From IMG/VR virus record IMGVR_UViG_3300015610_000939: 54,552 bases of DNA; one strand, 5' to 3'. Position numbers and translations under genes: made by a program. The stretch's first letter is position 1, and each line of letters begins with the position of its first letter. Under the pieces are notes generated by a model that worked only from the letters and a program-made list of their open reading frames with translations, ran no database searches and was not told where the DNA came from. The stretch comes from an uncultured virus (IMG/VR IMGVR_UViG_3300015610_000939). Lineage: Duplodnaviria; Heunggongvirae; Uroviricota; Caudoviricetes. Below, piece by piece: positions 36,691 through 52,853 of the stretch.

Positions 36691-38016
36691 TTAGACCGTC
36701 TTCGCTACGTTGTCGACCTTGAGTTGAACGATAAGGTCGCCTGGACGAGCAGCATTCACGGTTCCTGTCGGGGTGATGATCCAAAGGACCTTCGAGCCTC
36801 GAATGGAGCCCATCTCTTCTGCATATCCGTCTGTGAGGATCACAACCCCGGACCACTTTCCACGGTTCTTGTCGGAGTTCACGAAGTCAGCAACCGCATT
36901 GAAGCTGGTTCCACCACACCGAGTACGGCCCCAGGGGAACTTCTTCCCACGGCTCCAAATCTTGTGAGAATCCTCATCAATCTCCGTGTCGAAGTTGTAC
37001 ACGTCGATCGTGGTCTCCTTGCTGGCACCTTCAACCTCTGCGAAGGCAAGCGCCACGTCCTCATCCGACATCGAACCGGATTGGTCGATGAAAAATGCAA
37101 ACCTTGCAGTTCGTCCTCTCTTCACCCCAGGAACGATCCCAGGGAGCTTCCTGCTGACTCGCTTGACGGAGGAGATTCGCTCCATGGAACGGACACTCCC
37201 GAAGAAGTGACGGATAACCGATCGCCAGTCAACGATGGTCTCCAAACCACGGCAAATTTCCTCTCGGATGCTCTGAGGAACGTTTCCCCAGCTATTCTTC
37301 ATCTGTGCACGCTGCACAGCATCCCGGACAATGCTGCGAACCTTGTCCCTGAGCTCATCCTTGAGGTGGTCAGGGATTTCCCCCCAACCGCCGTGGTCAT
37401 CAAGCGAATCAAGGTCGAATCCATCGCCCTCGCCGTCACCGTCTTGCTCTTCCAGAATTTCCTTCATCTTCTCGAAGTACCACTCCGAGGCTTGCATGCC
37501 TGGAGCGGTCTTGATGAACTCCTTGAGCTTCTCGTTCTTGCTCTTTGGCTCACGACCTGGGAGCAAAGTCCACTCAGGGAGCTTGCTCTTGGAGTCCGAC
37601 GTGATGATTGAGTTGATCGCCAAATCCGTCCCAACATTCCAGAGACGGGCAAATGACCTGTCCGTGATGTTGCGCTCGAACAGGTGCATCAATGCAAGGT
37701 GGTAGAGCTCGTGGACGATAACGCCCCTCCGCTCCTGTGCGGTCATTGACCTGAAAAAGTACGGGTTGTACTGCAAGGTCAGGTGACCGCGCTCACCCAC
37801 AAATCCCACGCATGCGGTGGGAATTTCAGGGTTTGGCTTCTTGGTCAAGGAAATCGAGATTCCCCCAAGGAACGGTTCATCCATGAAGAGCTTGAGGAAG
37901 TCATCCTCGAACTCGGTCGCAGAGAACTTCTCCCCTTCATAGTGCGCTTGGCCCCAGAACTTATCATCCTTTGGGGTTTCGTTGTGCTCAGTCGTGGTAC
38001 CTTTGGTTTGTGCCAT
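36691..38016 (-). CDS. DUF2201-type metallopeptidase + VWA-like domain protein
   Basis: HELYH...H and WNVGTDLAIN in the N-domain; MIDAS DQSGSM, GGTSF and ILTDGY in the C-domain. Confidence 0.88.
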   Translation of the reverse strand: MAQTKGTTTEHNETPKDDKFWGQAHYEGEKFSATEFEDDFLKLFMDEPFLGGISISLTKKPNPEIPTACVGFVGERGHLTLQYNPYFFRSMTAQERRGVIVHELYHLALMHLFERNITDRSFARLWNVGTDLAINSIITSDSKSKLPEWTLLPGREPKSKNEKLKEFIKTAPGMQASEWYFEKMKEILEEQDGDGEGDGFDLDSLDDHGGWGEIPDHLKDELRDKVRSIVRDAVQRAQMKNSWGNVPQSIREEICRGLETIVDWRSVIRHFFGSVRSMERISSVKRVSRKLPGIVPGVKRGRTARFAFFIDQSGSMSDEDVALAFAEVEGASKETTIDVYNFDTEIDEDSHKIWSRGKKFPWGRTRCGGTSFNAVADFVNSDKNRGKWSGVVILTDGYAEEMGSIRGSKVLWIITPTGTVNAARPGDLIVQLKVDNVAKTV

Positions 38017-38340
38017 TTTTCTTGCCTTCTTCCTTAACATGTCACAACCGACAACGGTTTGACTTGGCCCGAAGAGAGTAAGGTGCTTTCAGTCATAGTC
38101 AACCTCAAAAAAAATTGCCCCACCCGTTGACGCCTCCCCCTCCCTGGTTATGGTGTTGTCACCGCTCGGCCAGGAAGGTTCCTGGAGCTAGAACCGGAAG
38201 CCAAAAATCCTGCAAAACAGGGTGATCCGGTGGTTTGAGTCCACCCCATAGCAGCTAAACGTACAAACGGGGGTTGCCAATCAGGGTAACCCATCTTACA
38301 AAGGTCCTCGACTCAACAAGCACGCAAAGGAAAACAAAGA

Positions 38341-39979: not shown

Positions 39980-40054
39980 GCTAACGTAGCAAAATGGTAT
40001 TGCTCGATACTTGTAATATCGAAGGTGCCCGTTCAAGTCGGGTCGTTAGCTCCA
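39980..40054 (+). tRNA. tRNA-Thr(TGT)
   Basis: full cloverleaf, CGATA-CTTGTAA-TATCG, CCA. Confidence 0.92.
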
Positions 40055-40179
40055 AGAAATGTGANNCACTCCTACGTTTAGGAATTTGAACAAAGGGAGT
40101 GGGCGAGCTTACCGCCGAAAAAATAGCTGTACCTGATAGGCAGGGTTGGAAGTTCAAGTCTTCTCTACAGCTCCGACAA

Positions 40180-40208
40180 GGAAGCAAAGCTTCCGAGTTC
40201 TTTGACAA
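40180..40208 (+). promoter_or_regulatory. boxB/boxA-like antitermination site
   Basis: hairpin GGAAGC-AAA-GCTTCC then GTTCTTTGACAA. Confidence 0.5.
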
Positions 40209-40221
40209 TCCAGCTTTTTTC

Positions 40222-40299
40222 GCACACGTAGCCCAACTGGTAGCAGGCAACGGACTAAGAATCCGTACAGTGGAGGTTCGAATCCTCTCGTGTGCACCA
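40222..40299 (+). tRNA. tRNA-Leu(AAG)
   Basis: ACGGA-CTAAGAA-TCCGT anticodon arm, Leu-type D arm, short variable loop, CCA. Confidence 0.88.
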
Positions 40300-40529
40300 C
40301 CCCGAAAGGGGTGATTTCCTGGGTTCTAGGAGGTTGACAATATGTGGCTGATTAAGTCTGACACGGATGAATAAAGCACATGTAGCCAAGCTCTGCATGA
40401 TCCTAATTGCCAGAAATCGTAAGGTAGCGGAAGCGGGTCTCTAGTTCGAATTCCTTGCTGGAGGGGACTTGCCAAGCGTATGCTCCCAAGATACAAACCA
40501 GTGTTGCGGGGCATGGGTGTAAAATCGCC

Positions 40530-40558
40530 TTGACTTGTTGAAGAAGAGTAGCTATCTT
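40530..40558 (+). promoter_or_regulatory. sigma70-type promoter
   Basis: TTGACT-N17-TATCTT. Confidence 0.6.
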
Positions 40559-40713
40559 CTGAGAGTCATGACTGAATAACGAGATTTGGTGGATGGGTGG
40601 AGAGGGTGGTACCTCTCCTGATTGTCGATCTCTTAGAGACCAGGAAGTAAACGTGGTGTGAACGGACGCTTGTCGTCCTAGTAGGACTGCACCGGGTTCT
40701 TTTGAACCCTTTA

Positions 40714-40786
40714 CAGGGATGAAGGCGTGTGCGTAGCCGGTTAGCTTTGGAAGCTAGCAGTGCCAGTTCGACTCTGGCATCCCTGA
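40714..40786 (+). tRNA. tRNA-Pro(TGG), atypical D loop
   Basis: CAGGGAT/ATCCCTG, TTAGC-TTTGGAA-GCTAG. Confidence 0.75.
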
Positions 40787-40915
40787 CCGGAATCAATTCT
40801 GATTCCTTGCTGGAACCCAAACAGAAACAGACGGCATGGGTTCGGTTGTAACGGGTTCGAATCCCGGCCTTGGACTCACTTGGGTTCATGTGCAAGCCTC
40901 GTTCCAGCACATCAT

Positions 40916-40989
40916 GGGGTATTAGTTAAACGGTATAATACTCGGTTGTCATCCGAGCGTCACGGGATCAACACCCGTATACCCCGCCA
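40916..40989 (+). tRNA. tRNA-Asp(GTC)
   Basis: CTCGG-TTGTCAT-CCGAG, CCA. Confidence 0.88.
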
Positions 40990-41027
40990 AGCAGCGACAC
41001 AGGTTCAATTCCTGTCGGTTACCGTAT

Positions 41028-41292
41028 GGGACCGTAGTTCAGTGGTAGAATAACTGCGCGTTTTCTGGAGTAGAACCTCTATTGGGCAAATTGGGAAGGG
41101 TATGCCTACTTCCTTGTGAGAGATCGGGAAACTGGTCTTCTCTACGAGGTTCACGGTGGCCACTGTTCGTGCAATGGTTTCGAAGATCAATGGGGACCTG
41201 AGATCGCATCAAAGGAATACTTGCTCTCCGACCACTGGCGAGAGAGGAACAATCAAGAAATGAAGCAGTTCGTAACAGAGCTGTTCAACTGA
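41028..41292 (+). pseudogene. tRNA 5' half fused to a 5'-truncated ORF remnant
   Basis: GGGACCG-TA-GTTC-AGTGGTA-GAAT, then a startless frame ...WEGYAYFLVRDRETGLLYEVHGGHCSCNGFEDQWGPE...LFN*. Confidence 0.55.
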
Positions 41293-41329
41293 CCTGAAAC
41301 CAGTACGGGCTCTGGCGAAAAGCCCATAT

Positions 41330-41404
41330 GCTTCCGAAGCTTTAGTGGATGAGCAGCAGGCTTTTACCCTGCTGAAGTGGGATCGTTACCCAACGGGAGC
41401 ACCA
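41330..41404 (+). tRNA. tRNA-Lys(TTT)
   Basis: GCAGG-CTTTTAC-CCTGC, CCA. Confidence 0.85.
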
Positions 41405-41476
41405 CCGAGATAGGTTAATGGTAAACCAACGCACCGAAACTGCGGCAATCCTGGTTCGAATCCAGGTCGATCGGCC
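41404..41476 (+). tRNA. tRNA-Phe(GAA)-like, degenerate acceptor
   Basis: good D and T arms, CGCA-CCGAAAC-TGCG, bulged acceptor. Confidence 0.5.
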
Positions 41477-41539
41477 TACTTCCCCTGGACCCGAAAGGGT
41501 TAGCAAGCCAGGAGTTCGAATCTCTCAGGGGATGCCAAT

Positions 41540-41614
41540 GCACACATAGCCCAATCCGGCAGAGGCGGGAGACTTAAAACTTCCAAAGTGCAGGTTCAAG
41601 TCCTGTTGTGTGCA
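41540..41614 (+). tRNA. tRNA-Leu(TAA)
   Basis: GCACACA/TGTGTGC, loop CTTAAAA. Confidence 0.85.
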
Positions 41615-41681
41615 CCCGTAGTGGCGAGATAACGGACGCCCTAGCCTGCCTGTCGGCTACGATCATGGTAGACAGGCAAAC

Positions 41682-41758
41682 GCGCATGTAGCCCAACTGG
41701 CAGAGGCGTCGGCTTCAAATCCCGAAGGTTGTGGGTTCAACTCCCACCGTGCGCACCA
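41682..41758 (+). tRNA. tRNA-Leu(CAA)
   Basis: Leu-type body, TCGGC-TTCAAAT-CCCGA, CCA. Confidence 0.8.
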
Positions 41759-41816
41759 AAAGCCAACCTGAGAGGTTGGCAGAATAGGTTCGACTCCAAA
41801 TGGAGTGCGTTCCAAT

Positions 41817-41891
41817 GCGTCCTTAGCTCAATGGTAGAGTCCCAGTTTTCCACACTGGATGTTACGAGTTCGAGTCTCGTAGGGCGCTCCA
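41817..41891 (+). tRNA. tRNA-Gly(TCC)
   Basis: CCAGT-TTTCCAC-ACTGG, TCCA end. Confidence 0.92.
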
Positions 41892-42036
41892 CTTCCAACT
41901 GAAGCCAGCCCAGGCACCAAACCTGCGGTGTTGGGGACCATAGAGGCCCAAAAGTAATCTCGTGAGTCGCGTCCTGGATAAGGGCGCCTGTTGGGAGTCA
42001 GTTAACATCACTTCCATCCTCTGCTATGCTCCTTGC

Positions 42037-42291
42037 ATGGCAAGGAAGAAGATCGAAAAGAACCAAAAAGACCCGAACGTCTTCTGGATGATCCGGGAGA
42101 AGAGCACCGGTCTGTACTACACTGGGAAATACTGGCGTTCGTTTGCGGTGGCAGGGAAGCTATTCACTAGCCACAACAGACTGCTCGGTGTCATCTCAAG
42201 GAAATTCAAGAAAAACCAAGAGCTCTACGAGGTTGTTGAATTCAAGCGAGTTGAGGTCGCTGTAGCGGAGGTTGCTGGTTATGGAGAGTGA
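42037..42291 (+). CDS. hypothetical protein
   Basis: 84 aa from MARKKIEK. Confidence 0.55.
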   Translation: MARKKIEKNQKDPNVFWMIREKSTGLYYTGKYWRSFAVAGKLFTSHNRLLGVISRKFKKNQELYEVVEFKRVEVAVAEVAGYGE

Positions 42292-42619
42292 GCAAAGATT
42301 TGGAGTTGCCGAGGCTGCTATGGCAGTCGACCTTCTGTCAAAGATGGTCAACCCCCCTCCATCCGACCAGATGATGGACCCTGAGCTTGTCAGGCACATC
42401 AAGGAGTTCGTCTCCAACATTACCCCCGACTCGCCAACGCCTGTGGAAGTGTGGAACTTCTGCAAGGAAATGCTGGACTACACTGTTCGGTATTCCTGGG
42501 GAGCCCCGATTGTGCTTGCTTGCCTCAATCTTGAGGGTAGGTCTCGGGCACCGCTTGGCTCCTTTGCCCAAGAGTTCGGCAACATGAATGACGCTCCGTG
42601 GCGTCAAAATGAGACTTGA
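42281..42619 (+). CDS. hypothetical protein
   Basis: GGAGG RBS, 112 aa. Confidence 0.55.
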   Translation: MESEQRFGVAEAAMAVDLLSKMVNPPPSDQMMDPELVRHIKEFVSNITPDSPTPVEVWNFCKEMLDYTVRYSWGAPIVLACLNLEGRSRAPLGSFAQEFGNMNDAPWRQNET

Positions 42620-42649
42620 CAGAGTGGGATTTGCTCCTAATCTAGGAGC

Positions 42650-42871
42650 ATGAAAACGAGAACAGTCTACGGGATGGCAGCAATCGGTCCGCTCGCCTAT
42701 TTCTCTGGAAAAGGGAGAATTGACAGTAGGCTGCTCTACACTTCACTCGAAGCCTTGGAAAAGGATCGAGAAGCCTTCAAGACCCGTGCCCTCGAAGGTG
42801 GGAACCCACTCACTTCACTTCAGACCGTGACTGATATCCAGGTCATTGAGTACGAACTCGTGGAGGACTGA
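42650..42871 (+). CDS. hypothetical protein
   Basis: 73 aa after a TTGACA/TAATCT promoter. Confidence 0.55.
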   Translation: MKTRTVYGMAAIGPLAYFSGKGRIDSRLLYTSLEALEKDREAFKTRALEGGNPLTSLQTVTDIQVIEYELVED

Positions 42872-42917
42872 AACTATTATCTCTCCGTAGTCTAACAGGA
42901 TAGGGCACCGTCCTTCT

Positions 42918-43412
42918 CTAACTTTTCACTTTCCGTTCTTGGATGTTTTCCAAGGAAAGGATGCCAGAATCAAACTCCCAGTGATGGTTGGGACACAATA
43001 CGAGCACATTTGAGGGATGGTTAACATCTCCAAGTGTGGCGCTGGCACTAAAAGAGGCTATCGCTTTGATATGGGCAAGCTCAACATGCTGGTGATAACC
43101 GCAAACTTGGCACGGAAGCTTTCGAAGTTGACTATTCCAACTTCGATTGAAAGCTCGGATGTGTGAGTTAACCCACGAAGGGTGCTTGCCAACAACCGAA
43201 AGTCTTGACTGGTAATCAGAAATGGTCATGAGTTTTATCTCTTGAGTAGTTGGTATCTTCCGCGCTTTTTTGAGTTTCGGTTTGTTTCTTTGCTTCCCAA
43301 GGTTGTTAATGCTTGCCGCACATGAACTTGAGCAGAAATGTCGTGGATGGCGTTTTACTTGATTGGGCTTTTTCTGAAACTGCTTTCCACATTTGAGACA
43401 CACAACGTTCAT
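42918..43412 (-). CDS. HNH endonuclease with N-terminal zinc-binding motifs
   Basis: CLKCGK..FCSSSCA; CQVCGY..VELAHIK....N..VLCPNHHWEFD; AAGGAG RBS. Confidence 0.9.
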   Translation of the reverse strand: MNVVCLKCGKQFQKKPNQVKRHPRHFCSSSCAASINNLGKQRNKPKLKKARKIPTTQEIKLMTISDYQSRLSVVGKHPSWVNSHIRAFNRSWNSQLRKLPCQVCGYHQHVELAHIKAIASFSASATLGDVNHPSNVLVLCPNHHWEFDSGILSLENIQERKVKS

Positions 43413-43424
43413 GAATTCTCCTTT

Positions 43425-43498
43425 GTCCCGGTATGCCGCCTGACTTCTAATCAGGAGAAAGCTAATGGATCATGCAGGTTCGACCCCTGTCCGGGACG
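43425..43498 (+). tRNA. non-canonical D-armless tRNA-Arg(TCT)
   Basis: GTCCCGG/CCGGGAC, 7-nt linker TATGCCG, CCTGA-CTTCTAA-TCAGG, 18-nt variable region, GCAGG-TTCGACC-CCTGT. Confidence 0.75.
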
Positions 43499-43625
43499 CA
43501 AATGCAATTTACTCTGCAAAACAACTCTTGTTTTGCAAAAACTTGTGGGAGTTCAAATCTCCCCGGAGAGGCCAATACAACGATCCACTTCTTTTCCACC
43601 TTGCACTTCGGAATAGGAACTATCT

Positions 43626-44063
43626 ATGGCGAAGGCAAAGAAAGAAATGGCGGATAAACTTCGTGGAACAACTGATCACGACCTGCGTGAGTTGGTCGGG
43701 AAGAAGATCAAGGAGATCACCCTCTACAAGGTGAACGCTTCGTCTGATGGTTCGGACATTAGGCAGTTCTACCGTATCAAGGTGGCAGGCAGGGGCGAGA
43801 ATGAGTTCATCCTTGCTTGTGACGGCGGGAATAGTCAGCAGTACGCAAGGGTATCCTTGATGTATCCTGACGACTTCGAAGCCTTCCTTTCCGAGCTTGG
43901 TGACGATGCCGAGCCGGATGTTGACGAAGAAGAGGATGTGGACCTCGAACCTGATGGTGATGAGGCGGTTCCTGCCAACCTCTTTGATGAGATCGAATCC
44001 GAGGATGACGAAGACGACGATCCCGACGCAGAGGGCGATGAAGACGAAGACGACGATTACTGA
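43626..44063 (+). CDS. protein with highly acidic C-terminal tail
   Basis: 145 aa; last ~55 aa dominated by D/E. Confidence 0.7.
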   Translation: MAKAKKEMADKLRGTTDHDLRELVGKKIKEITLYKVNASSDGSDIRQFYRIKVAGRGENEFILACDGGNSQQYARVSLMYPDDFEAFLSELGDDAEPDVDEEEDVDLEPDGDEAVPANLFDEIESEDDEDDDPDAEGDEDEDDDY

Positions 44064-44089
44064 TCGTTGTGCCCGAAAGGGCAAAGTTT

Positions 44090-44162
44090 GCAGCTATGGT
44101 CTAAAGGATAATGATGTCGCATTGCCAGTGCGACGGTGCGAGTTCGATTCTCGCTAGCTGCT
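44090..44162 (+). tRNA. tRNA-Gly(GCC)
   Basis: TCGCA-TTGCCAG-TGCGA. Confidence 0.88.
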
Positions 44163-44206
44163 CTATCCAGGTAAACTTCTGATTCCCTTCCTGGTATGTT
44201 CCTGGC

Positions 44207-44587
44207 ATGAGAAAACCAAGAACCAAGGGTGTCCTAACGGACGAGCAAGTGAAAGAGATGCTCAGCCAACTGGAGGCTCACTTTGATGAGCCTGTGCGGC
44301 CTGTCTCGGAATACTGTGAGGCACTGGAGACCTGGAGCCGGGTTGTTTGCAAGAAATACCCTGCGGAAGCCCGTGTACACTCCTCAATTCGTCTTTCCAT
44401 CAAGAAGAGCAACCTCCTTGCGAGGCTGATCTACGGTGGGGAGAAGTTGAGAACAAGGGAGTGTCCCATTCACAAAGGCGAGTGGAACGGCCAAGCGATG
44501 CTCATGGGTTGCGAGCACAAGTGTGATGGAACTGGCTGGCTGAGAGAGCCGGAAGATGAAAACGCACCTGGGGGTGTTGACGGCTGA
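44207..44587 (+). CDS. hypothetical Cys/His-containing protein
   Basis: 126 aa; CPIH...C.H.CDGTGW. Confidence 0.6.
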   Translation: MRKPRTKGVLTDEQVKEMLSQLEAHFDEPVRPVSEYCEALETWSRVVCKKYPAEARVHSSIRLSIKKSNLLARLIYGGEKLRTRECPIHKGEWNGQAMLMGCEHKCDGTGWLREPEDENAPGGVDG

Positions 44588-44614
44588 GTGAGGCTGGTTA
44601 ACATGGGTGGTGTT

Positions 44615-44660
44615 GGAAGGAAAGCTTCCGAAGGAGCAACGCTCCAACGCTCTTTGACAA
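44615..44660 (+). promoter_or_regulatory. boxB/boxA-like antitermination site
   Basis: GGAAG-GAAAG-CTTCC and GGAGC-AAC-GCTCC hairpins then GCTCTTTGACAA. Confidence 0.5.
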
Positions 44661-45285
44661 CTGATTGAGAACAAAGTGTTTCCGGCTTCAGTAAAAAGCC
44701 GGTGTCGCAGCGGACGTACCGCTGCTGGTGGAGGGCCGTAAAAAGCCCCCTGATGCCCTGGGATTGCGAGAGTCACCTAAGCGGTGATAGGCCCAGGGAT
44801 GGAGTTGAGGTGATGCCCGTAGGTAGAATCTGGACGGTAACCAATCCGATAGCCAGGGGACGATGGCTACAACATCTCAGCGAAAGGTCACCGAAAGGTG
44901 CAAGACCCGTACCGTGGATTTGCTGCACGGTTGTTTCTTAAAACCTATCGGGTAGCCAGCTAAACTGGCGAAGAGCCTTTGAAGCGAGATAGGGATGTTG
45001 GATGGCAGAAGGAACACTCCAACAAGTCGCTAATCCGACTCAAAAGAAACTCTAGGGTCTTGGCAAGATTCCTCAGCCAAAGATGTAAGGCAGTAAAGGC
45101 CGAAATCGACCCATGCGTTGAAAAACGAGAGTAAAGGAGACTGGCTACCTAACGGTAGTATCCGCCCAAGGAATCGTGGCGAGCGGAGAACAGGATGACG
45201 AGCAGGGAATATGTAACCCTGTAGGGTGACAACCAGCGAAGTAAGATGCGAGATAAACCCTCGTAGGAGTGCTTCGGAGATAGTC
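44660..45285 (+). ncRNA. large structured ncRNA candidate (GOLLD/ROOL-like size and context)
   Basis: ~625 nt with no credible ORF and more than 12 hairpins, inside the tRNA array after a boxA-like site. Confidence 0.6.
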
Positions 45286-45289
45286 AAAT

Positions 45290-45362
45290 GGACCTTTGGT
45301 GTAGCAGGTGCGCACGCTAGCCTGAAGAACTTGAGGTCGCGGGTCGGTACCGCGAGGGTCCA
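45290..45362 (+). tRNA. tRNA-Phe(GAA), weak anticodon stem
   Basis: GGACCTT/AGGGTCC, loop CTGAAGA. Confidence 0.7.
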
Positions 45363-45452
45363 CTGTTGATCTTCCCCCTTGACGGGGCAGGAAGATGAGT
45401 TAGAGTGAGGGCATCCAAGGAACACTTGGAACCGGTCTCTGACAACAAAATT

Positions 45453-45564
45453 CGTTCAGTAACCCAAATGGTGGGCAGTCCAAAAGACTGTGATGCACCA
45501 CGAGTAGAGGTGCTGCTCCTAGCGGGGGCAGAAGTTCTCGGTGAAAATCCGAGCTGAGCGACCA
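45453..45564 (+). tRNA. tRNA-like RNA with D-loop hairpin insertion, anticodon ambiguous (TAG/AGC)
   Basis: CGTTCAG/CTGAGCG-ACCA, T arm CTCGG-TGAAAAT-CCGAG. Confidence 0.55.
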
Positions 45565-45566
45565 AT

Positions 45567-45641
45567 AGGGTCATAGTGAAATGGCATCATGCTGGATTCC
45601 AAATCCATGCGATGGAAGTTCGAGTCTTCCTGGCCCTGCCA
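45567..45641 (+). tRNA. tRNA-Trp(CCA)
   Basis: TGGA-TTCCAAA-TCCA, GCCA end. Confidence 0.85.
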
Positions 45642-45642
45642 T

Positions 45643-45727
45643 AGGTGAGTCATCTAACGACTAGGATATAGGTTGTCTTCGCAAGAAACAGCTTAGAATA
45701 GAGGTTCAATTCCTTTCTCACCTACCA
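45643..45727 (+). ncRNA. anticodon-less tRNA-like RNA (GCAA-capped arm)
   Basis: AGGTGAG/CTCACCT-ACCA, D and T arms intact, extended arm TAGGTTGT-C-TTC-GCAA-GAA-ACAGCTTA. Confidence 0.65.
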
Positions 45728-45728
45728 A

Positions 45729-45803
45729 GGCCCGCTAGCTCAACGGTTTCAGAGCGGCGATTTGTTAAGTCGATGTGTCCAGGTTCAAATCCTGGGCGGA
45801 CCG
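45729..45803 (+). tRNA. tRNA-Asn(GTT)
   Basis: CGAT-TTGTTAA-GTCG, normal D/T arms. Confidence 0.8.
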
Positions 45804-46026
45804 CTGATCAAGCGTCTAAGTTCTAGGTAAAAGTGGTAAGCGGATTGCAGCGTGACTGCAACGTAGAGAACTAAGCTCCCACTGCATTTAACCAAACGAG
45901 GAAGCAAGGCTTCCGAGGCCCTCAAGAAAGGGAATTAAACGAGATATCTTGCTCTGTCTCGAAGGTAACTTGCGCTAGCCGGATAGCCTCCGGGTGAGAA
46001 ATCACGTAGGTGAGACGCAAGAAAAT

Positions 46027-46117
46027 GCAATCGTGGTGACTATTGGTACGTGTCACACTGGTCTGTAAAACCAGTCCCCCTGGGTAAACATTGAAGGTTC
46101 AATTCCTTTCGATTGCA
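46027..46117 (+). tRNA. tRNA-Tyr(GTA)
   Basis: CTGGT-CTGTAAA-ACCAG, long variable arm. Confidence 0.85.
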
Positions 46118-46122
46118 CTAAC

Positions 46123-46194
46123 AGGCGTGTAGCTTAATGGAGAAGCACCTCGCTGATAACGGGGAGAGCGATGGTTCGATTCCATCTACGCCTA
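46123..46194 (+). tRNA. tRNA-Ile(GAT)
   Basis: CCTCG-CTGATAA-CGGGG. Confidence 0.9.
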
Positions 46195-46207
46195 CTAAAT
46201 GATTCAT

Positions 46208-46280
46208 GGGCTCGTAGCTCAATTGGGAGAGCACCTGACTTGCACTCAGGAGGTTGCCGGATCGTTCCCGGTCGGGTCCA
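46208..46280 (+). tRNA. tRNA-Ala(TGC)
   Basis: G3-U70 pair, CCTGA-CTTGCAC-TCAGG. Confidence 0.92.
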
Positions 46281-46348
46281 CTGATAATATCATAGTGGTT
46301 CACACTGAATTTGCATTGCAAACAAAGACAATTCCACTATGTTTCTAA

Positions 46349-46434
46349 GGGCGGGTAGCTCAGTCGGTAGAGCAGTTGGCGAGGGAGAAATCCCGACCCA
46401 ACCGCGCGGAGGTTCGATCCCTCCCCCTGACCCA
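46349..46434 (+). ncRNA. anticodon-less tRNA-like RNA (GAAA-capped arm)
   Basis: canonical D arm GCTC-AGTCGGTA-GAGC and T arm; GTTGG/CCAAC encloses GGGA-GAAA-TCCC. Confidence 0.65.
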
Positions 46435-46495
46435 CTAGACTTCCAGTCTTACAGTCTTACAACTGAATTCAGGAAGAAATCAAAGCATACAAAAA

Positions 46496-46572
46496 CGGGA
46501 TGTAGGTCAATCTGGTAGACCACTCGCTTTGGGAGCGAGGAGTTGAGAGTTCGAATCTCTCCATCCCGACCA
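46496..46572 (+). tRNA. tRNA-Pro(TGG)
   Basis: CTCGC-TTTGGGA-GCGAG, CCA. Confidence 0.93.
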
Positions 46573-46931
46573 AGCCCCTGCACATAAAGAGTACCACTGC
46601 GCGCTGGTGGACGAGGTGCAAGACCTTGCGGGGGCTCTGAGGATCACTCGTCGTGACAAAACTCAGTTGATGCTGTGCGTTCTTGACAGACGTGCGACAA
46701 CGTGTGATCCTCTAATATGCTCACCGAAAGGTAGAGTGACTCGCTGGGATAGAGTCAGCCCAACTCCCAGGTTTGAAAATACGGGGTTGATAAGGAGAAA
46801 GTCGTCCTTGGTTGGACTGCAAACAACCGAACCATGCGGACAAAACACCCGACTTGACACCTGGAGAGACAGGACGTAGATATTGGCCACTTCGCCTCTG
46901 TTGAAAAACATGCGCCCTAAGTGGTCGGTTT

Positions 46932-47004
46932 AGCCCTTTAGTTTTCTGGAGAAGGCACCTGCCTTACAAGCAGGAACAGACGAGTTCGATCCTCGTAGGG
47001 GCTA
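46932..47004 (+). tRNA. tRNA-Val(TAC)
   Basis: CCTGC-CTTACAA-GCAGG. Confidence 0.85.
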
Positions 47005-47014
47005 CTGTTCTTTT

Positions 47015-47089
47015 GGGTTCAAAGCATTAATGGTGATGCACTCGGCTCTTAACCGTGTGAACTCGGATCGTTACCGAGTGGACCCACCA
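47015..47089 (+). tRNA. tRNA-Lys(CTT)
   Basis: GGGTTCA/TGGACCC-ACCA, loop CTCTTAA. Confidence 0.88.
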
Positions 47090-47090
47090 C

Positions 47091-47144
47091 CCCAGCCCTT
47101 AGACGGCCGTCATTTCAGGCTCATGACCTGAAAGGCTGGGACCA
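47091..47144 (+). ncRNA. T-armless tRNA-Met(CAT)-like RNA
   Basis: CCCAGCC/GGCTGGG-ACCA and TTCAGG-CTCATGA-CCTGAA, no T arm. Confidence 0.55.
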
Positions 47145-47216
47145 AAGTTGGGTAGCTGCCCGTTGAGGGCAGTCAACCGTAGCCCTGGTGGGAGGCGAGA
47201 TATTCCACCGTTTCAT

Positions 47217-47294
47217 CGAAGTGTACCGACCCTGGCTCTTAACCAGGAGAATCGTAATTGGTTGCAAATGAGGGTTCGAGTCCCTCCGCTTCGA
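47217..47294 (+). tRNA. non-canonical D-armless tRNA-Lys(CTT)
   Basis: CGAAGTG/CGCTTCG, 7-nt linker TACCGAC, CCTGG-CTCTTAA-CCAGG, 22-nt variable region, GAGGG-TTCGAGT-CCCTC. Confidence 0.75.
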
Positions 47295-47621
47295 CCGCTT
47301 GTCATAAGGGTAATTGATATACCCGTTCTGTATGAGAGAAAGATGGAAGCGAAGTATCGGGCCTAAGCAACCCTGACTGCACGAGCTTGGTGCGGTTGAC
47401 TTTGTGGAAGTCTCATCGAGTGCAGTGAAGTGCCAAGAATGACTGGTAGGGTACCAGCCTACCAGTGCGTCACAGTGCTAGAAAGGAAGAAGGACGTTGC
47501 GTTCGTATGCACCCGATCTCTTCCAAGTTGTGGGTACCGGTCACTCACCTCCCCCGGTAGCGTTCGAAGGTGAATAATGAGACTGATAAAATCGCTTCGG
47601 CGGCAATGCCAAAGAAGCACT

Positions 47622-47693
47622 GGGCCTGTCGTCTAATAGCAAGGACAATCTGCTTCCCCGCAGACGATAGAGGTGCAACTCCTCTCGGGCCCA
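47622..47693 (+). tRNA. tRNA with non-7-nt anticodon loop, identity undetermined
   Basis: GGGCCTG/CGGGCCC, TCTGC-TTCCCC-GCAGA. Confidence 0.6.
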
Positions 47694-47835
47694 CCGGCAA
47701 AAAAGTCTACACTGAGAGTTTGAACAAACCTTGCAGTCTCCCATGATTGGTAAGCGCTTACTGGTCTAGGGGGGAATGCAGCGGAGCCAGCTCTCTGTGT
47801 AGATGGCGGCTCAAACGCGAGAGTCGTTTCAAAAC

Positions 47836-47907
47836 CAAGCATTCTAGCTCACCGGAAGAGCGCCTGAGTGATCGGGAGGTACGGGGTTCGACTCCCCGGA
47901 TGGTTGG
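47836..47907 (+). ncRNA. anticodon-less tRNA-like RNA (GTGA tetraloop)
   Basis: GCTC-ACCGGAA-GAGC, CCTGA-GTGA-TCGGG, CGGGG-TTCGACT-CCCCG. Confidence 0.6.
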
Positions 47908-47944
47908 CGATGAACAAAGCCGTATTTTCGCCCTACTTACTTCC

Positions 47945-48631
47945 ATGAAAAAGAGTGTTTTGGAAGCCTTGATCAAGGAAGCGATCCTGGAAGGTGTCAT
48001 GGATAATATGACAACCCAAATCTCCAGGTTGATCGTGAACCACATGAAGGCTTCCAAGGATTGGAGGAAGATCCCTCCCTTCGAAGCCGATGTTGGCTCG
48101 CTCAAGTTCAAGGCAATCTTTCAACCGTCCCAGGACGGTCTATTCCGCCTCAGAGGGGCTGCTTACGACCAGCTTGGGGAATTGGTCAAGGTGGCCATTG
48201 AAGTGCCCCGCAACGCCGACCTGAGCGGCCTGAGTGACTTCATTCCTTCCTTGAAGAATACCCTTCGGCATGAGCTGGAACATAGGCAGCAGGACAAGCG
48301 TTCGGGTTTCGAGCTTGGCCAAGCAAAGCCTCATGCCGTGGCAAAGGGTTCAATGGATGGTCCGTATCCCAAGGATGTTGGGGGAACTATTCAATCCGTC
48401 ATGGCCTACTACTTGCATCCCAAGGAAGTGGAAGCTTACGTGATGGGGGCTTACAAAGAGGCGAAGACCCGCAAGGCTCCGTTCTCCGATGTGCTCCGAA
48501 ACCAACTCATGGCAATTCACGATCAACTCCTTGGGGAGTTCGATGAAGTCCAGGCAGCCCAGGTAGCAAGATCTATCCAGCGTGCTTGGATGGAGTACAT
48601 CAAAGTGAGATTTCCTCGCAAGCAAGGTTGA
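47945..48631 (+). CDS. HExxH protein (putative zinc peptidase-like) with CTS-like N-terminus
   Basis: LRHELEH..Q and YY....EVEAYV motifs; MKKSVLEALIKEAILEG; TACTTA 5 nt upstream. Confidence 0.7.
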   Translation: MKKSVLEALIKEAILEGVMDNMTTQISRLIVNHMKASKDWRKIPPFEADVGSLKFKAIFQPSQDGLFRLRGAAYDQLGELVKVAIEVPRNADLSGLSDFIPSLKNTLRHELEHRQQDKRSGFELGQAKPHAVAKGSMDGPYPKDVGGTIQSVMAYYLHPKEVEAYVMGAYKEAKTRKAPFSDVLRNQLMAIHDQLLGEFDEVQAAQVARSIQRAWMEYIKVRFPRKQG

Positions 48632-48656
48632 CATTCAAGTGTCGCCCTCTTAGATT
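48628..48656 (+). promoter_or_regulatory. sigma70-type promoter for the tRNA-Met cluster
   Basis: TTGACA-N17-TAGATT. Confidence 0.65.
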
Positions 48657-48680
48657 GAGGGAGTAGCAAGAAACACCCAC

Positions 48681-48756
48681 AGCAGGGTAGAGCAGAAGTA
48701 GCTCGCTTGGCTCATAACCAAGAGGTCGTGGAGAGCATTTCCCACCCCTGCTACCA
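48681..48756 (+). tRNA. tRNA-Met(CAT), atypical T loop
   Basis: CTTGG-CTCATAA-CCAAG, CCA; T loop lacks TTC. Confidence 0.8.
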
Positions 48757-48849
48757 CAAACAGGATCATGAGTTTGCAAGGCCACCCGCCGAAAACGGGG
48801 CTTCCTATGAAGATAGAAAGCTGGCCTTCGTGTTAGAGTGATCGTTTAC

Positions 48850-48922
48850 TGCGGGATGGAGAAGAAGATTCTTGCCGGGTTCATACCCCGGAGACGTGGT
48901 TGAGCATTTCCCACTCCCGCAA
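48850..48922 (+). tRNA. tRNA-Met(CAT), initiator-like, atypical T loop
   Basis: CCGGG-TTCATAC-CCCGG (three G-C pairs). Confidence 0.7.
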
Positions 48923-49006
48923 CTGTTGTTCTCAATCGTGTTGTCTTGTGCATAAAACCGCATGGGGAAGCTCCTTTACGGAAGGTGCCTTAGCACTGGA
49001 AGGTAA

Positions 49007-49426
49007 TTGACAAACTGTTGGTCTCAGATCAAGGTCGTGCCAGCAGGGCATCTTGGGGAGCGTTACCCCAAGGGTAGGAAGGGCCGCAACAAACCATGGG
49101 AATTCTTCCACAGGATTGAGGACACTATGAACTACGCTGTTCGAGCTTTCGTTTTCAAGTGGACAGGTGGCAACCAGGAAGTCTTGGAGACGACACTTGA
49201 TGATCAGTCGATCATTGAGCAGTTCATCTACCGGGCTGTTGACCACGAGACCAACAGGAAGATTGCCGAGCAGTTTGGGAAGATCATCACCCAGGTGAAA
49301 GTGTTCCCAACGGAGAATCAAGGTTGGATGATCCTTGACAAGCACACAAAGCGTGTGCTACACAGGGACATCAAGAACAAGAGTGAAGTCGCCGAGCTGT
49401 GCCAGAAGCACGGTTACTTTGCGTAA
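49007..49426 (+). CDS. hypothetical protein
   Basis: 139 aa, TTG start after GGAAGG. Confidence 0.5.
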   Translation: MTNCWSQIKVVPAGHLGERYPKGRKGRNKPWEFFHRIEDTMNYAVRAFVFKWTGGNQEVLETTLDDQSIIEQFIYRAVDHETNRKIAEQFGKIITQVKVFPTENQGWMILDKHTKRVLHRDIKNKSEVAELCQKHGYFA

Positions 49427-49436
49427 CAAAGACTAC

Positions 49437-49532
49437 TGCGGGGTAGAGTAGAGGTGTCCTCGGGAAACTGGGGCGTAACTCACTTGGCTCATAACCAAGA
49501 GATCGTGGTGTTCGATTCCCACCCCCGCAACC
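49437..49532 (+). tRNA. tRNA-Met(CAT) with D-loop hairpin insertion
   Basis: TGCGGGG/CCCCGCA, CTTGG-CTCATAA-CCAAG; insert TGTCCTCGG-GAAA-CTGGGGCG. Confidence 0.75.
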
Positions 49533-49639
49533 GCAGCCATAGCTCAGCGAGATCAGAAGCTTGGTACCGAGTGGAAGGTCGATGGAAGAGCAACGGGTCT
49601 AGAATCCGTAGGTCAGACGTTCGACTCGTCTTGGCTGCT
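49533..49639 (+). tRNA. tRNA-like RNA with ~34-nt D-loop insertion; anticodon loop TCTAGAA
   Basis: GCAGCCA/TGGCTGC, ACGGG/TCCGT, AGACG-TTCGACT-CGTCT. Confidence 0.6.
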
Positions 49640-49645
49640 CCGCAT

Positions 49646-49719
49646 GCACCCATCTTCTAACGGTTCAGGAAACCACCCTTTCAAGGTGTGAAATACGGGT
49701 TCAAATCCCGTTGGGTGCG
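49646..49719 (+). tRNA. tRNA-Glu(TTC)
   Basis: CACC-CTTTCAA-GGTG. Confidence 0.85.
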
Positions 49720-50202
49720 CTACTTCTTCTTCTGGTACTCAACCTGATTGGCGTTCCAGACGACAATTTCCCGCAACTTTCCATTGAAGAACTGAAAGAT
49801 TGCGTCATACCCCTTGGACTGAGCCAAGTTCTTGACTTGAGTTCCGAGGTAACCTTTCTTCATTTCTTCCTTCTCAACGAAGGCTTCGGCCTTTGCTTGA
49901 TCGACTCCGAGCTGAACAAGGGCGTCCACCATAGGGTGGGTACGGTTGTTGTCGGTGTAAATCTTCAAGGGGTTATGGATTCTCAGGCGTGTCTGAACAA
50001 CCTGACCACCTGACTCAGCAGCATAATCCTGGGCAACATCCTTGATTGGGGTGAAGTAAGCGCCAGAACCAAGCGCTCCTCTGCCATTTGTCTTAACGGC
50101 CTTGACACCGTCCCAGGTACCACCATGGTATACGGGACCAATGTTGAAGTCGTTCTCGTCTTCCAAGAGCAAGGAGTAGATGCTGTACCAATGAGCACTC
50201 AT
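49720..50202 (-). CDS. ADP-ribosyltransferase-like protein (ART-PolyVal type)
   Basis: VYHGG, G.LGSGAYFTP....A..YA, L.I.NPL, GYDAI......EIVVW...Q (H-Y-E triad pattern). Confidence 0.75.
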   Translation of the reverse strand: MSAHWYSIYSLLLEDENDFNIGPVYHGGTWDGVKAVKTNGRGALGSGAYFTPIKDVAQDYAAESGGQVVQTRLRIHNPLKIYTDNNRTHPMVDALVQLGVDQAKAEAFVEKEEMKKGYLGTQVKNLAQSKGYDAIFQFFNGKLREIVVWNANQVEYQKKK

Positions 50203-50549
50203 GGAGCTAAATACTACGACATTGAGGAAGATTTCCTACGGTCTTTGGATGACATTTCCGACCACAAGCTGATTATTGTCAACGAGAGAAGTCCGATTAT
50301 TTCTCCAACGTTGCCCCTTGCAGCTTTCCACAACGCTTGCTTGATTGTCCAAAAAACCTGTGATCGGTTTAGGACGACTGGTTTGTTTACGGTCAAGTGG
50401 ATGGTTTGGAAGAACAGGTTTGGGCCTTCAAATGTAAGCCTCAGCCTCAAAGCACGACAGGTTCTCTTTGACCGCTATGTCGTCCTTGCCGAGCGTTCTG
50501 GTCGCGCAACCCCACTTAACATCACTGAAGTCAGGGCTAAGTTGCTGAC

Positions 50550-50849
50550 ATGAAGACAGAGTACATCCAGCTTCCCGAAGGGCTCGACCTCAACAAGTTG
50601 TTTGCGCACCGGGTTGCGTTGCGCACCATGTCGCGCGCTGACTTCATCCACGAACATGGTTCAGGCACCCTCCGCAAGAACACCAAGCTCGGCATGGACA
50701 ACAACCGCCAGTACCTTGATGAGCGAACCGCTTACGAGTTTCTCCTCGGGGTTCTACTGGGTGGACATCTACAAGCTGGTCAAAGACCTGAATTCGTATC
50801 TTCTTCACAAACACGGTTGACACTCCCGAGAAGGGGTGTTACCTTCTGA
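50550..50849 (+). CDS. hypothetical protein, possibly truncated or frameshifted
   Basis: 99 aa; 3' end may continue in another frame ending at 50820. Confidence 0.4.
   Translation: MKTEYIQLPEGLDLNKLFAHRVALRTMSRADFIHEHGSGTLRKNTKLGMDNNRQYLDERTAYEFLLGVLLGGHLQAGQRPEFVSSSQTRLTLPRRGVTF
50817..50845 (+). promoter_or_regulatory. sigma70-type promoter for tRNA-Glu
   Basis: TTGACA-N17-TACCTT. Confidence 0.6.
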
Positions 50850-50859
50850 ACATCGAAAC

Positions 50860-50932
50860 GGTCCTATCTTCTAAAGGTACAGGAATCCTGATTTTCACTC
50901 AGGCAATGAGGGTTCGATTCCCTCTAGGATCA
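50860..50932 (+). tRNA. tRNA-Glu(TTC)
   Basis: CCTGA-TTTTCAC-TCAGG. Confidence 0.88.
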
Positions 50933-51059
50933 CTGTCTGCTATGCCTATAAGGCGACCGAGAGGGCAGAAAGGTACCCCGCACCACCTATCCAAGTTTGC
51001 GGGAGGTCGTTGAACACCTACGATTCAACCTGCCGCCCTGTCGGTCACAGGGTAATCCT

Positions 51060-51136
51060 GGTCCCATCTTCTAACAGGTTCAGGAACCCTGATTCTCAAT
51101 CAGGTAATGCGGGTTCAAGCCCCGCTGGGATCACCA
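51060..51136 (+). tRNA. tRNA-Glu(CTC)
   Basis: CCTGA-TTCTCAA-TCAGG, CCA. Confidence 0.9.
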
Positions 51137-51137
51137 T

Positions 51138-51210
51138 GGACCATTTGCAATCTGGTGATTGCAGCAAGCTGTTAACTTGCCCAAGCAGGGTTCGATTCCC
51201 TGGTGGTTCG
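51138..51210 (+). tRNA. tRNA-Asn(GTT)
   Basis: GCAAG-CTGTTAA-CTTGC. Confidence 0.85.
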
Positions 51211-51214
51211 TCAA

Positions 51215-51556
51215 ATGTCAATCAAAGATATCAAACCAACCCAATCGGAGCTCGAATGCGGAATTGAGTTCACTCCCGAAGAACGGCTTCGAGAGGTTGC
51301 TGCGGAGATTTTCCTGAAATGCCAGGATGAATGGAAGGAGCGCATCCTCCATCATCTCTCGAACGAAGAGATTCAAGAGCTCCTGAAGGATGAAGACTTC
51401 TGCAAGCACAACGAACTGTCTCTTGCGCAGGTTGCAAGGACTGAACTTCGTTGTCGCGCCTCACTTGCGCGTGCAATCCAAGTTGGAACGCCCTACTGCA
51501 TCTATCACGACTGCAAAACAACTGACTGCCCTGACGGGCATTTTGACGACGAGTAA
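51215..51556 (+). CDS. hypothetical protein
   Basis: 113 aa. Confidence 0.5.
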   Translation: MSIKDIKPTQSELECGIEFTPEERLREVAAEIFLKCQDEWKERILHHLSNEEIQELLKDEDFCKHNELSLAQVARTELRCRASLARAIQVGTPYCIYHDCKTTDCPDGHFDDE

Positions 51557-51560
51557 AGCC

Positions 51561-51857
51561 ATGGAAAACGAAGTGTTCTCTCTTATTCTCAGCAAGTATG
51601 TGCCGTATGAGGGATACGATGTGAATTTTCTTGGAACCTTCCGCTCCATCGAGGGCCTGTTGGATGGTTTCGCAGCTTGGGTGGAGGCAGATAACCACCC
51701 TGCTTTGGCGAAGGAACTTTCTGGACTCAAGACCGTTGACCAAGTCAACGAGGTTTTGGACCGAAACAGGCGGGAATTTGGGTATTCCTACGATTCTGTG
51801 TATATTGAAGTCACGGCACACAAGATTGGCGAAGTCATCTTGCCGAATGCCATGTGA
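51561..51857 (+). CDS. hypothetical protein
   Basis: 98 aa from MENEVF. Confidence 0.55.
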   Translation: MENEVFSLILSKYVPYEGYDVNFLGTFRSIEGLLDGFAAWVEADNHPALAKELSGLKTVDQVNEVLDRNRREFGYSYDSVYIEVTAHKIGEVILPNAM

Positions 51858-52069
51858 TGGTTACACTGTCTGAGAAGGATAGAAACAACATGCTCACAGA
51901 ACAAGACATTGACGACCTCCGAAACACCAAGACTGAACAGGAATGGGACTCCGTCTGCGACAGGATCAAGGCTGCGCACAAAGGCAGCTATCCTGCGGAC
52001 TGGTACCCCCGTGTGCTTGCCTCGGGATTTGCTGCTACTGTCTTTCGCGGGTGGAAGAACAATGGCTAA
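51854..52069 (+). CDS. hypothetical protein
   Basis: 71 aa; probable start 51890 after AAGGA. Confidence 0.55.
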   Translation: MMVTLSEKDRNNMLTEQDIDDLRNTKTEQEWDSVCDRIKAAHKGSYPADWYPRVLASGFAATVFRGWKNNG

Positions 52070-52334
52070 AATTGGAACTGCTGACTGCAAGCTCGCGATC
52101 GTCCAACACATTCAGAACAACCCAGGGATCGTCGCACGAGAGTTTTGCGATGGTCAAGGGAAGCCAAATACTCCCTTCAAGGCGACGGCAGATGGCAGGG
52201 TACTCTCTGCGGTTGATTTCGAAAAGCCAGCTCAGAAAGTGAAAAGCTGGAAGAGGTGCGAAAAGCAACGTACCACCGGCGGCGGACGCTATTGTGTACA
52301 AGGTTCCAGTTGGAGCAACGATGCGGATGTTTGA
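52062..52334 (+). CDS. hypothetical protein (may continue via frameshift to 52440)
   Basis: 90 aa from MAKIGTADCK. Confidence 0.45.
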   Translation: MAKIGTADCKLAIVQHIQNNPGIVAREFCDGQGKPNTPFKATADGRVLSAVDFEKPAQKVKSWKRCEKQRTTGGGRYCVQGSSWSNDADV

Positions 52335-52782
52335 GTGTTCTGCTAGCAATGAAGCTCAGAACACCTACGAAGATCAGCTCCGTGCCTACACATACGACGA
52401 TGGTAATACGATTCTGCGTGTCGTCGTAGCAGGCGAGTAGCAACCTGCAAGGATAAACTTTACGGAGACCCCTCCATTATACGGGATGCTTCCATGTTGA
52501 TTTCGGTTGACATGGGAGCAAACGGCTCTAAGGTAGAACCGATGCTTGGTTGGCCTCCAATTCTGGCCTATCCCCTCAAGGGCAAGCGGGAGCTAATACG
52601 GGTGCGAATCCTGGGTCCCCTCCAATTGTCGTCAACTTCCGGGGTTGACAGCACTTCTGATTGATGCTTACAGAAGAGAAACAAGCAGAGCATATCGTCA
52701 CCATACAAACAGGGTAGCCTGGGTCGAAAACTGTATGGCGTGGAGTAAGCTCGGAAGAGCGAGTGCGTCTGAAACAGGCAAA

Positions 52783-52853
52783 TAGATGGTAGCTTAATGG
52801 AAAAGCACCCTGCGGAAAGCAGGAAGATGTGGGTTCGAGTCCCACTAGTCGAG
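52783..52853 (+). ncRNA. degenerate tRNA-like RNA with GGAAA loop
   Basis: D and T arms good, CCTGC-GGAAA-GCAGG, poor acceptor. Confidence 0.5.

Follow-up and report, generated by a model that had tools for sequence, protein, structure and literature searches.

We analysed a 54,552-nt stretch of DNA, hereafter the window, from an uncultured tailed-phage record (IMG/VR IMGVR_UViG_3300015610_000939; Caudoviricetes), and within it a 702-nt segment (44588-45289, + strand) that is a candidate for one or more structured non-coding RNAs (ncRNAs). The window carries phage-type genes: its PHROG matches include tail proteins, HNH endonucleases and an RtcB tRNA ligase, and Pfam matches also include RtcB, amidase, NADAR, an R2K ATP-grasp domain and ART-PolyVal. 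A tRNA array, all on the + strand, spans 39980-54417. ARAGORN called 27 tRNAs in the window, all but one within the array, and Rfam contributed six further tRNAs at gathering score and one at a relaxed threshold, which brings the total to about 34 in the window and about 33 within the array. The candidate lies inside this array, between the stop of an open reading frame (ORF) at 44207-44587 and a tRNA at 45290-45362. It is 59.6% purine, with a GC skew of +0.17 on the array strand. An earlier reading made without database searches (the sequence-only reading) had proposed a hairpin-dense ncRNA at 44660-45285, a slightly narrower interval; that this stretch is hairpin-rich and sits within a phage tRNA array was borne out.

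The candidate stretch is non-coding. TAA, TAG and TGA each occur three to six times in each of the three + frames of 44588-45289, and since every + frame contains all three kinds of stop, reassigning any one stop would leave every frame closed. Of nine ORF pieces taken from the two strands (30-131 aa), none had a Pfam or PHROG match better than E 0.04, and the longest + strand ORF (44702-44938, 79 aa) had no counterpart among 5.8 billion predicted proteins. With stops of all kinds in every + frame and no protein-family remnant, the sequence-only reading was right that there is no credible ORF. In agreement, the 10 listed strain substitutions in the candidate (described below) fall 3/4/3 across frame positions without codon periodicity, in contrast to the adjoining 126-aa ORF, where eight of nine listed substitutions are at codon position 3.

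Folding, strain variation and RNA-library cover

The whole stretch has a minimum free energy (MFE) of -239.8 kcal/mol (z -3.0), which none of 20 shuffles equalled. Folded as separate halves, the 5'/central part was matched by two of 100 shuffles and the 3' module by five of 200 (z scores in Table 1). When a second shuffler was applied to all sequences, the candidate reached z -5.1, whereas eight coding stretches of its length ranged from -0.8 to -2.9. Perfect 7-bp hairpins number four in the candidate against 0.56 in shuffles, of which about 1 in 300 reaches four. All eight hairpins named in the sequence-only reading are present in the sequence. The MFE fold contains seven of them, whose pairs have mean probabilities of 0.78-0.99; the bases of the eighth (CCTATC/GATAGG) pair elsewhere, and the CACC-GAAA-GGTG hairpin competes with a longer one. 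The MFE fold consists mostly of single hairpins and one three-way junction at 45049-45132, and its long-range helices have pair probabilities of only 0.2-0.75. Two long-range closing helices (44593-44599/45231-45237 and 44605-44610/45162-45167; pair probabilities 0.68-0.75) were set aside because no variation falls in them and because their 3' partners are absent from one related contig type (P0024, below).

Strain variation was compared over 43000-47000 using two RNA-library runs and two DNA runs. A strain contig from run X8 covers 44071-45722 and is ~2% divergent. Over the 702 nt of the candidate it shows 10 listed substitutions (1.4%) and a deletion of 1 nt, whereas the adjoining ORF carries nine substitutions in 381 nt, eight of them among its 127 third codon positions (6.3%). 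The candidate therefore changes more slowly than third positions (Fisher p 0.003; p 0.052 if all nine unlisted differences lay in the candidate), and sequence constraint on the stretch is well supported. All 10 listed substitutions and the deletion fall within 44588-45041, giving a rate of 2.2% for the 5' 450 nt, and the run comparison listed no strain change in 45042-45289.

Twelve substitutions (the 10 listed and two read from the antisense translations described below) were placed on the MFE fold, six at unpaired and six at paired positions. A compensatory change was found in runs X7, X8 and X15, where 44955 G>A and 44969 C>U together convert a G-C pair to A-U; the loop of the same hairpin carries 44964 A>G. 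The change 44614 U>C converts a U.G pair to C-G in the hairpin with the motif GGAAGnnnnnCTTCC and, like those at 45041 and 45110, is wobble-compatible. The substitutions at 44773 and 44864 each break one pair, at or beside a helix end. The deletion, at 44740, sits in a hairpin loop and is outside the set of 12. In a permutation test, the chance of at least one compensatory pair among 12 random substitutions was 0.039. Structural constraint rests on one base pair, 44955/44969.

The 3' part of the stretch could be followed into related contigs, in which gene callers have called a spurious antisense ORF over 45033-45425 whose translations appear in a protein database. Among eight antisense versions (the window and seven others), differences are confined to four of the 86 residues that span 45033-45290. 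Two of them correspond to 45041 C>U and 45110 C>U, which turn G-C into G.U (45110 was placed by hand from the alignment of antisense translations), and the other two to 45113 and 45133, which are unpaired. In the same antisense sequences the anticodon arm of the tRNA is variable and the spacer at 45363-45574 has diverged (47% identity in P0022); the N-terminal part of P0029 fails to align with the other versions. Judged from these translations, the 3' ~260 nt are more conserved than any other DNA nearby.

Contigs from RNA libraries of two studies cover the candidate. Those of X15 span 44441-44869 (depth 5.2) and 44884-45165 (depth 9.9), and a metatranscriptome contig of X16 spans 45004-45293 (depth 9.1), which is nearly the 3' module and reaches 3 nt into the tRNA. 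Of the contigs of this phage in the 4 kb compared, the deepest of each library lies in the candidate, and in X16 it is the sole contig of that region at least 95% alike. This cover is a hint of expression and, together with the sequence constraint, fits the earlier proposal of an ncRNA.

Table 1. Features of the candidate stretch and its borders (window coordinates)
Feature	Positions	Strand	Basis or remark
Upstream protein gene, 126 aa, conserved Cys/His positions	44207-44587	+	context, not part of the RNA
Promoter-like site TTGACG-16-TAACAT at 5' edge of candidate	44577-44604	+	match 9/12
Whole ORF-free, purine-rich structured stretch	44588-45289	+	stops, folding, Rfam scan
Putative 5'/central module(s), about ten hairpins in a row	44605-45026	+	fold z -2.4
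Hairpin UUGGAAG-GAAAG-CUUCCGA with motif GGAAGnnnnnCTTCC	44613-44631	+	followed by TCTTTGACAA at 44651-44660
Further 5'/central hairpins	44682-44702, 44707-44725, 44730-44750, 44756-44798, 44804-44835, 44850-44869, 44891-44951, apex of 44978-45044	+	
Hairpin GCCAG-CUAAA-CUGGC with compensatory change	44955-44969	+	strain comparison
Putative 3' module: three-way junction 45049-45132 and hairpins 45144-45159, 45202-45222, 45238-45275	45027-45289	+	fold z -2.2; end about coincides with tRNA start
Weak tRNA, anticodon loop CUGAAGA reading GAA (Phe), abutting candidate	45290-45362	+	Rfam tRNA, 38.2 bits

Comparison with known RNAs and search for relatives

The sequence-only reading had left open membership of GOLLD or ROOL and named OLE, group I and II introns, RNase P RNA and transfer-messenger RNA (tmRNA) as further families to check. 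We ran cmscan with all 4227 families of Rfam 15 over 44160-45570 (both strands, permissive filters, E≤10), and none of them matched inside 44588-45289, so that membership of any of these families is excluded. The only matches in the scanned region were the tRNA at 45290-45362 and a chance match to a long ncRNA outside the stretch. Likewise, the whole array at E≤5 and the whole window at the gathering threshold gave tRNAs only. At E≤10 there was no match to bacterial RNase P RNA classes A and B (RF00010/RF00011-type models, P4 core) or to the intron models Intron_gpI, Intron_gpII and group-II-D1D4, and no split tRNA or gene was found at the flanks. Models of clan CL00001 and ARAGORN detected nothing tRNA-like or tmRNA-like within the candidate. 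That the search method works on such DNA is shown by L036, a metagenome contig described below, where it detected a class A RNase P RNA at 261 bits. A CsrA-type GGA sponge was also considered and dropped, with ~22 GGA triplets, counted by eye, against ~19 expected from composition.

GOLLD and ROOL are described near tRNA islands in phages and prophages (PMC5737381; bioRxiv 10.1101/2024.12.08.627333), and these sources support the premise of the sequence-only reading that such RNAs occur beside phage tRNA clusters. As presented there, ROOL (Rumen-Originating, Ornate, Large) averages 581 nt and is possibly co-transcribed with tRNAs (PMC5737381; bioRxiv 10.1101/2024.12.08.627333). The candidate resembles ROOL in size range, in having tRNAs nearby in phage or prophage DNA and in having no assigned function. 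It differs in having no match to the ROOL model at E≤10, in a fold that is mostly a simple row of hairpins with one compensatory pair, and in being known from near-identical strains only. GOLLD is described as large, often located in tRNA islands, sometimes tRNA-linked, and composed of a variable 5' part and a conserved 3' part (bioRxiv 10.1101/2024.12.08.627333). In comparison with that description, the candidate also lies in phage DNA at a tRNA island, and its 3' ~260 nt, its most conserved part, abut a tRNA. In contrast, it has no match at E≤10 to the GOLLD model, which captures the conserved 3' domain; it measures 702 nt where many GOLLD members exceed 800; and it shows no sign of the GOLLD 3' domain or of self-assembly.

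The RNAC and RNAD species of phage T4 are small, ~120-140 nt, and are processed together with tRNAs. They are described as stable non-tRNA RNAs from the phage tRNA region, of unknown role (PMC3014915). The candidate too would be a non-tRNA RNA in a phage tRNA region; the likeness is one of setting. The T4 species are small, and GenBank phages gave no blastn match to the candidate. If real, the candidate founds a new family within a known kind of RNA, the large ncRNAs of phage tRNA islands.

Part of the stretch recurs as near-identical DNA in runs from wastewater, activated sludge and freshwater (20 rows, 10 studies; four of the rows may be the source sample). Direct searches for more distant relatives were negative. 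With words of 11, blastn matched the candidate to nothing in GenBank phages or PLSDB plasmids. The IMG/VR collection, scanned for exact and degenerate motifs of the candidate and of the adjoining tRNA, gave no real match and lacks the window itself, and blastn of that tRNA against phages was negative as well. Six IMG/VR loci from one degenerate scan were rejected, as only the pattern, a Shine-Dalgarno-like word, matched. Using nhmmer and blastn, nothing similar was found in up to 95 fetched loci, and blastn of five whole IMG/VR records and one more gave a best E of 0.175, a 19-nt word. Single-sequence covariance models built from the window alone, R1 (45045-45165) and R2 (44887-45044), recovered in 92 sources only the window itself (157.6 and 202.1 bits) and two chance rows (E 1.6 and 6), and found nothing in four and five IMG/VR records, the parent record of L036 being outside this search. 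With phmmer, the antisense translation retrieved from 1.84 billion representatives two near-identical spurious ORFs and two repeat-type matches only.

A further route led through the 126-aa protein encoded upstream, by synteny. It yielded 80 loci kept of 119 confirmed in metagenome contigs, together with nine IMG/VR loci and two loci in metagenome-assembled genomes (MAGs). The 80 metagenome loci had at most 50% identity over the whole match, with a few short partial matches at 51-66%. None of the 80 metagenome, nine IMG/VR and two MAG loci had a downstream stretch like the candidate; the protein relatives at 75-98% identity lie outside the DNA collections scanned, which is the main limit on this homologue search.

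Neighbouring genes and other features of the array

The ORF at 44207-44587 is a real gene, and the candidate begins where it ends. Its product has 20 homologues (98-34% identity); the family, which has no name, is invariant at C37, C86-P87-x-H89 and C102 and nearly so at C106. Members are found in IMG/VR records of 463-536 kb (three of the nine loci), in soil metagenomes and in two MAGs; the protein itself has no family in Pfam or PHROGs. An AlphaFold2 (AF2) model, with a mean confidence (pLDDT) of 81.6, had no clear fold match. A lambda Q-like antiterminator was considered and rejected: the top Foldseek rows were Q-lambda but at E 2.5-5 and a TM-score of ~0.19, and neither VIA-align (best Z 4.8, to generic helical proteins) nor a profile search of the PDB (none below E 0.6) supported it.

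L036, one of the metagenome contigs reached through this protein, is 48.7 kb long. At 6224-6580 (+) it encodes a complete class A RNase P RNA of bacterial type, which scores 261.3 bits (E 6e-85) and covers model positions 1-367. This RNA lies within an array of tRNA genes, at least 22 in number and all on one strand. Should the contig be viral, the RNase P RNA would be phage-borne; no paper among those listed in a literature search named RNase P RNA.

The motif GGAAGnnnnnCTTCC has exactly three copies in the window (40180, 44615 and 45900), all on the + strand and in array spacers, and two of these copies have TCTTTGACAA after them. The motif sites extend over 40180-40208, 44615-44660 and 45900-45914, and a related word, TCTCTGACAA, lies at 45436-45445. 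This hairpin motif may act in the array as a signal for processing or as one associated with promoters. The promoter-like site at the 5' edge of the candidate is a hint only, as the promoter scan overall was not above chance (11 sites versus 9.3 expected).

In the tRNA abutting the candidate, which ARAGORN did not call, two anticodon-stem pairs are mismatched. Its anticodon arm also gathers strain differences, at 45329-45337 in X8 and at several variable residues of the antisense translations. Two other tRNAs in the array are unusual. That at 49646-49720 (+; 75 nt, anticodon UCA) is labelled SeC by ARAGORN, is too short for a true tRNA-Sec and is of opal-suppressor type; despite it, the window has 40 stop-to-stop open frames of 200 codons or more, and 24 of these end in TGA. 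That at 47622-47695 (+), at 40.4 bits in Rfam, has an abnormal anticodon loop ('cc') and received no identity from ARAGORN. The spacer that follows the array's first tRNA contains two N bases (40065-40066). In the X8 strain the tRNA-Asn(GUU) gene at 45729-45804 (+) is swapped for 16 other letters (joint 45722>45816, depth 48.8), and the X8 contig has further insertions of ~420 and ~540 nt to the right; the tRNA content of the array therefore varies between close strains.

Two protein genes lie inside the array on the opposite strand, an HNH endonuclease gene at 42921-43412 (Pfam HNH_2, E 3.7e-11) and a gene with an ART-PolyVal ADP-ribosyltransferase domain at 49723-50202 (E 5e-14). Another HNH endonuclease gene is found near the array, at 36694-38040. 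A full-length RtcB RNA ligase is encoded 25 kb from the array at 18392-19627 (-; Pfam E 1.4e-126), which fits a phage tRNA-repair programme.

Candidate RNAs and competing explanations

We tentatively favour the explanation that the stretch comprises one or, more likely, two stable, structured ncRNAs, restricted to this lineage and processed out of the tRNA transcript, and we put its probability somewhat short of even. The two RNAs would be the 5'/central part (~44605-45026) and the 3' module (~45027-45289). Both would be read on the array strand within a precursor transcript of ~34 tRNAs, with the promoter-like site possibly adding transcripts. The transcript would fold into the row of hairpins and the three-way junction, and tRNA-maturing enzymes would free the RNAs, an RNase P cut at 45290, the 5' end of the tRNA, setting the 3' end. 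The non-coding status, the constraint on the sequence, local folding beyond chance and the presence in RNA libraries are shown, whereas co-transcription, RNase P processing, the division into two modules and any trans-acting function are inferred. The candidate falls outside described families and would be confined to a narrow lineage of wastewater and freshwater phages. The evidence exceeds that for a typical orphan, in view of the constraint, the one compensatory pair and the RNA cover, and it is short of the covariation in diverged homologues that defines an RNA class; as no diverged homologue was retrieved, the structure is unproven and a new class is not demonstrable.

The preference for two modules comes from related contigs. 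The P0024 contig keeps the tRNA and the downstream spacer at 91-93% (antisense frame) and lacks ~45021-45282, that is, the 3' ~260 nt. Upstream of its tRNA there is a weak likeness to 44933-45017 (60% over 25 residues, E 0.015) and otherwise different sequence. In the P0025 contig the tRNA is in a wholly different setting. The lack of the 3' part in P0024 and its invariance elsewhere beside a scrambled spacer therefore favour modules over one 700-nt RNA. The single ~625-nt RNA of the sequence-only reading thus holds as a structured, constrained non-coding stretch, whereas its being one RNA is doubtful.

Several observations weigh against stable RNAs of this kind. Given its absence from the P0024 contig, the 3' ~260 nt would be dispensable or a separate insertion, and its uniformity beside scrambled flanks could reflect recent recombinational spread and not selection. 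Among GenBank phages, plasmids, IMG/VR and the 80 metagenome and two MAG loci, no homologue was found beyond near-identical strains, and in L036, a soil metagenome contig and the only relative to share the setting of this gene in a tRNA array, a tRNA directly follows the gene. Broken pairs show no deficit (two observed versus 2.3 expected among the 12 substitutions; permutation p 0.57). The coding DNA of this phage is rich in hairpins too: of 125 windows taken from it, 7% likewise reach four perfect 7-bp hairpins, so the count in the candidate is only modestly above background. Among seven other array spacers tested, three equal or exceed the candidate in folding, namely 40300-40713 (z -4.75), 53666-54025 (z -5.7) and 45363-45566 (z -3.9). 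The hairpin density of the candidate is real and above chance, yet the candidate is not the sole structured spacer in the array. RNA-library contigs show neither strand, true ends nor level, and those of X15 cover adjacent genes too. The three strongly folding spacers had no Rfam match at E≤5 and may be further ncRNA candidates; that at 53666-54025 (+) is closed by a 13-bp stem.

The equally well-folded spacers and the breakage of predicted pairs at chance rate would suit a transcribed spacer without a function of its own, a long inter-tRNA leader or trailer whose hairpins are signals for processing, stability or punctuation, possibly with an internal promoter. The recurrence of GGAAGnnnnnCTTCC in array spacers, twice followed by TCTTTGACAA, the promoter-like hexamers, and the short modules duplicated within the stretch (44839-44856 with 44942-44959; 44611-44648 with 44996-45023) fit this explanation as well. 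We consider it a real possibility, if a rather unlikely one, because 702 nt evolving ~4 times more slowly than synonymous sites exceed the constraint expected from a few processing hairpins, because the 3' 260 nt are almost invariant in eight contig lineages whereas the true spacer past the tRNA is scrambled, and because the deepest RNA-library contigs of the locus fall in the candidate. The high identity of the stretch might instead be a matter of recency and not of selection, if the stretch is a mosaic module, non-coding DNA recently exchanged between related phages by recombination, or a scar left by a mobile element or a decayed gene. Such an origin would explain its presence/absence polymorphism (P0024) and its near-identity beside strongly diverged flanks, and it is in keeping with the HNH endonuclease genes in and near the array and with a joint, 44749>45295, that run X8 shows at low depth (2.8, side 22). 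It is nevertheless distinctly unlikely: the nine ORF pieces hold no protein-family remnant, there are no terminal inverted or direct repeats at the module borders (three weak inverted pairs occur in the stretch, none at its ends), substitutions are spread over the 5' 450 nt and not absent from it, and neither a compensatory pair nor RNA-library cover is expected of a scar.

The hairpins might also act as DNA, in an origin, a packaging site or an array of protein-binding sites. The - strand of the candidate folds well above shuffles (z -4.3 with the shuffler used for the coding controls), and several short words are repeated in the stretch. The strand asymmetry in purine content and GC skew, the GNRA-type and A-rich loops on the + strand, and G.U-dependent pairs that make the + strand fold 16 kcal/mol better than the - strand all point away from a DNA-level element, and the candidate contains no iterons or AT-rich unwinding tract. 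We regard this explanation as very improbable.

A bolder extension of the ncRNA explanation is that the stretch, or its invariant 3' ~260-nt module with the tRNA, is the founder of a new class of phage tRNA-island RNAs. In large phages of wastewater and freshwater communities dominated by Gram-negative bacteria, it would be the functional counterpart of GOLLD and ROOL, serving as an RNA-only scaffold or decoy tied to tRNA supply and repair. The scaffold or decoy role is suggested because an RtcB ligase, an opal-suppressor-type tRNA and ~34 tRNAs share the window; we hold the proposal as a whole to be doubtful.

The large structured RNAs of phage tRNA islands, GOLLD and ROOL, are striking bacterial RNAs without known function, of which there are few classes. 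The candidate is at present an orphan, a lead and not yet a discovery. If true, an unrelated RNA from another phage group and habitat would support the view that tRNA arrays are general homes of phage ncRNA genes. It would also support the view that the arrangement itself, with co-transcription with tRNAs and ends made by tRNA-processing enzymes, counts for more than any one fold.

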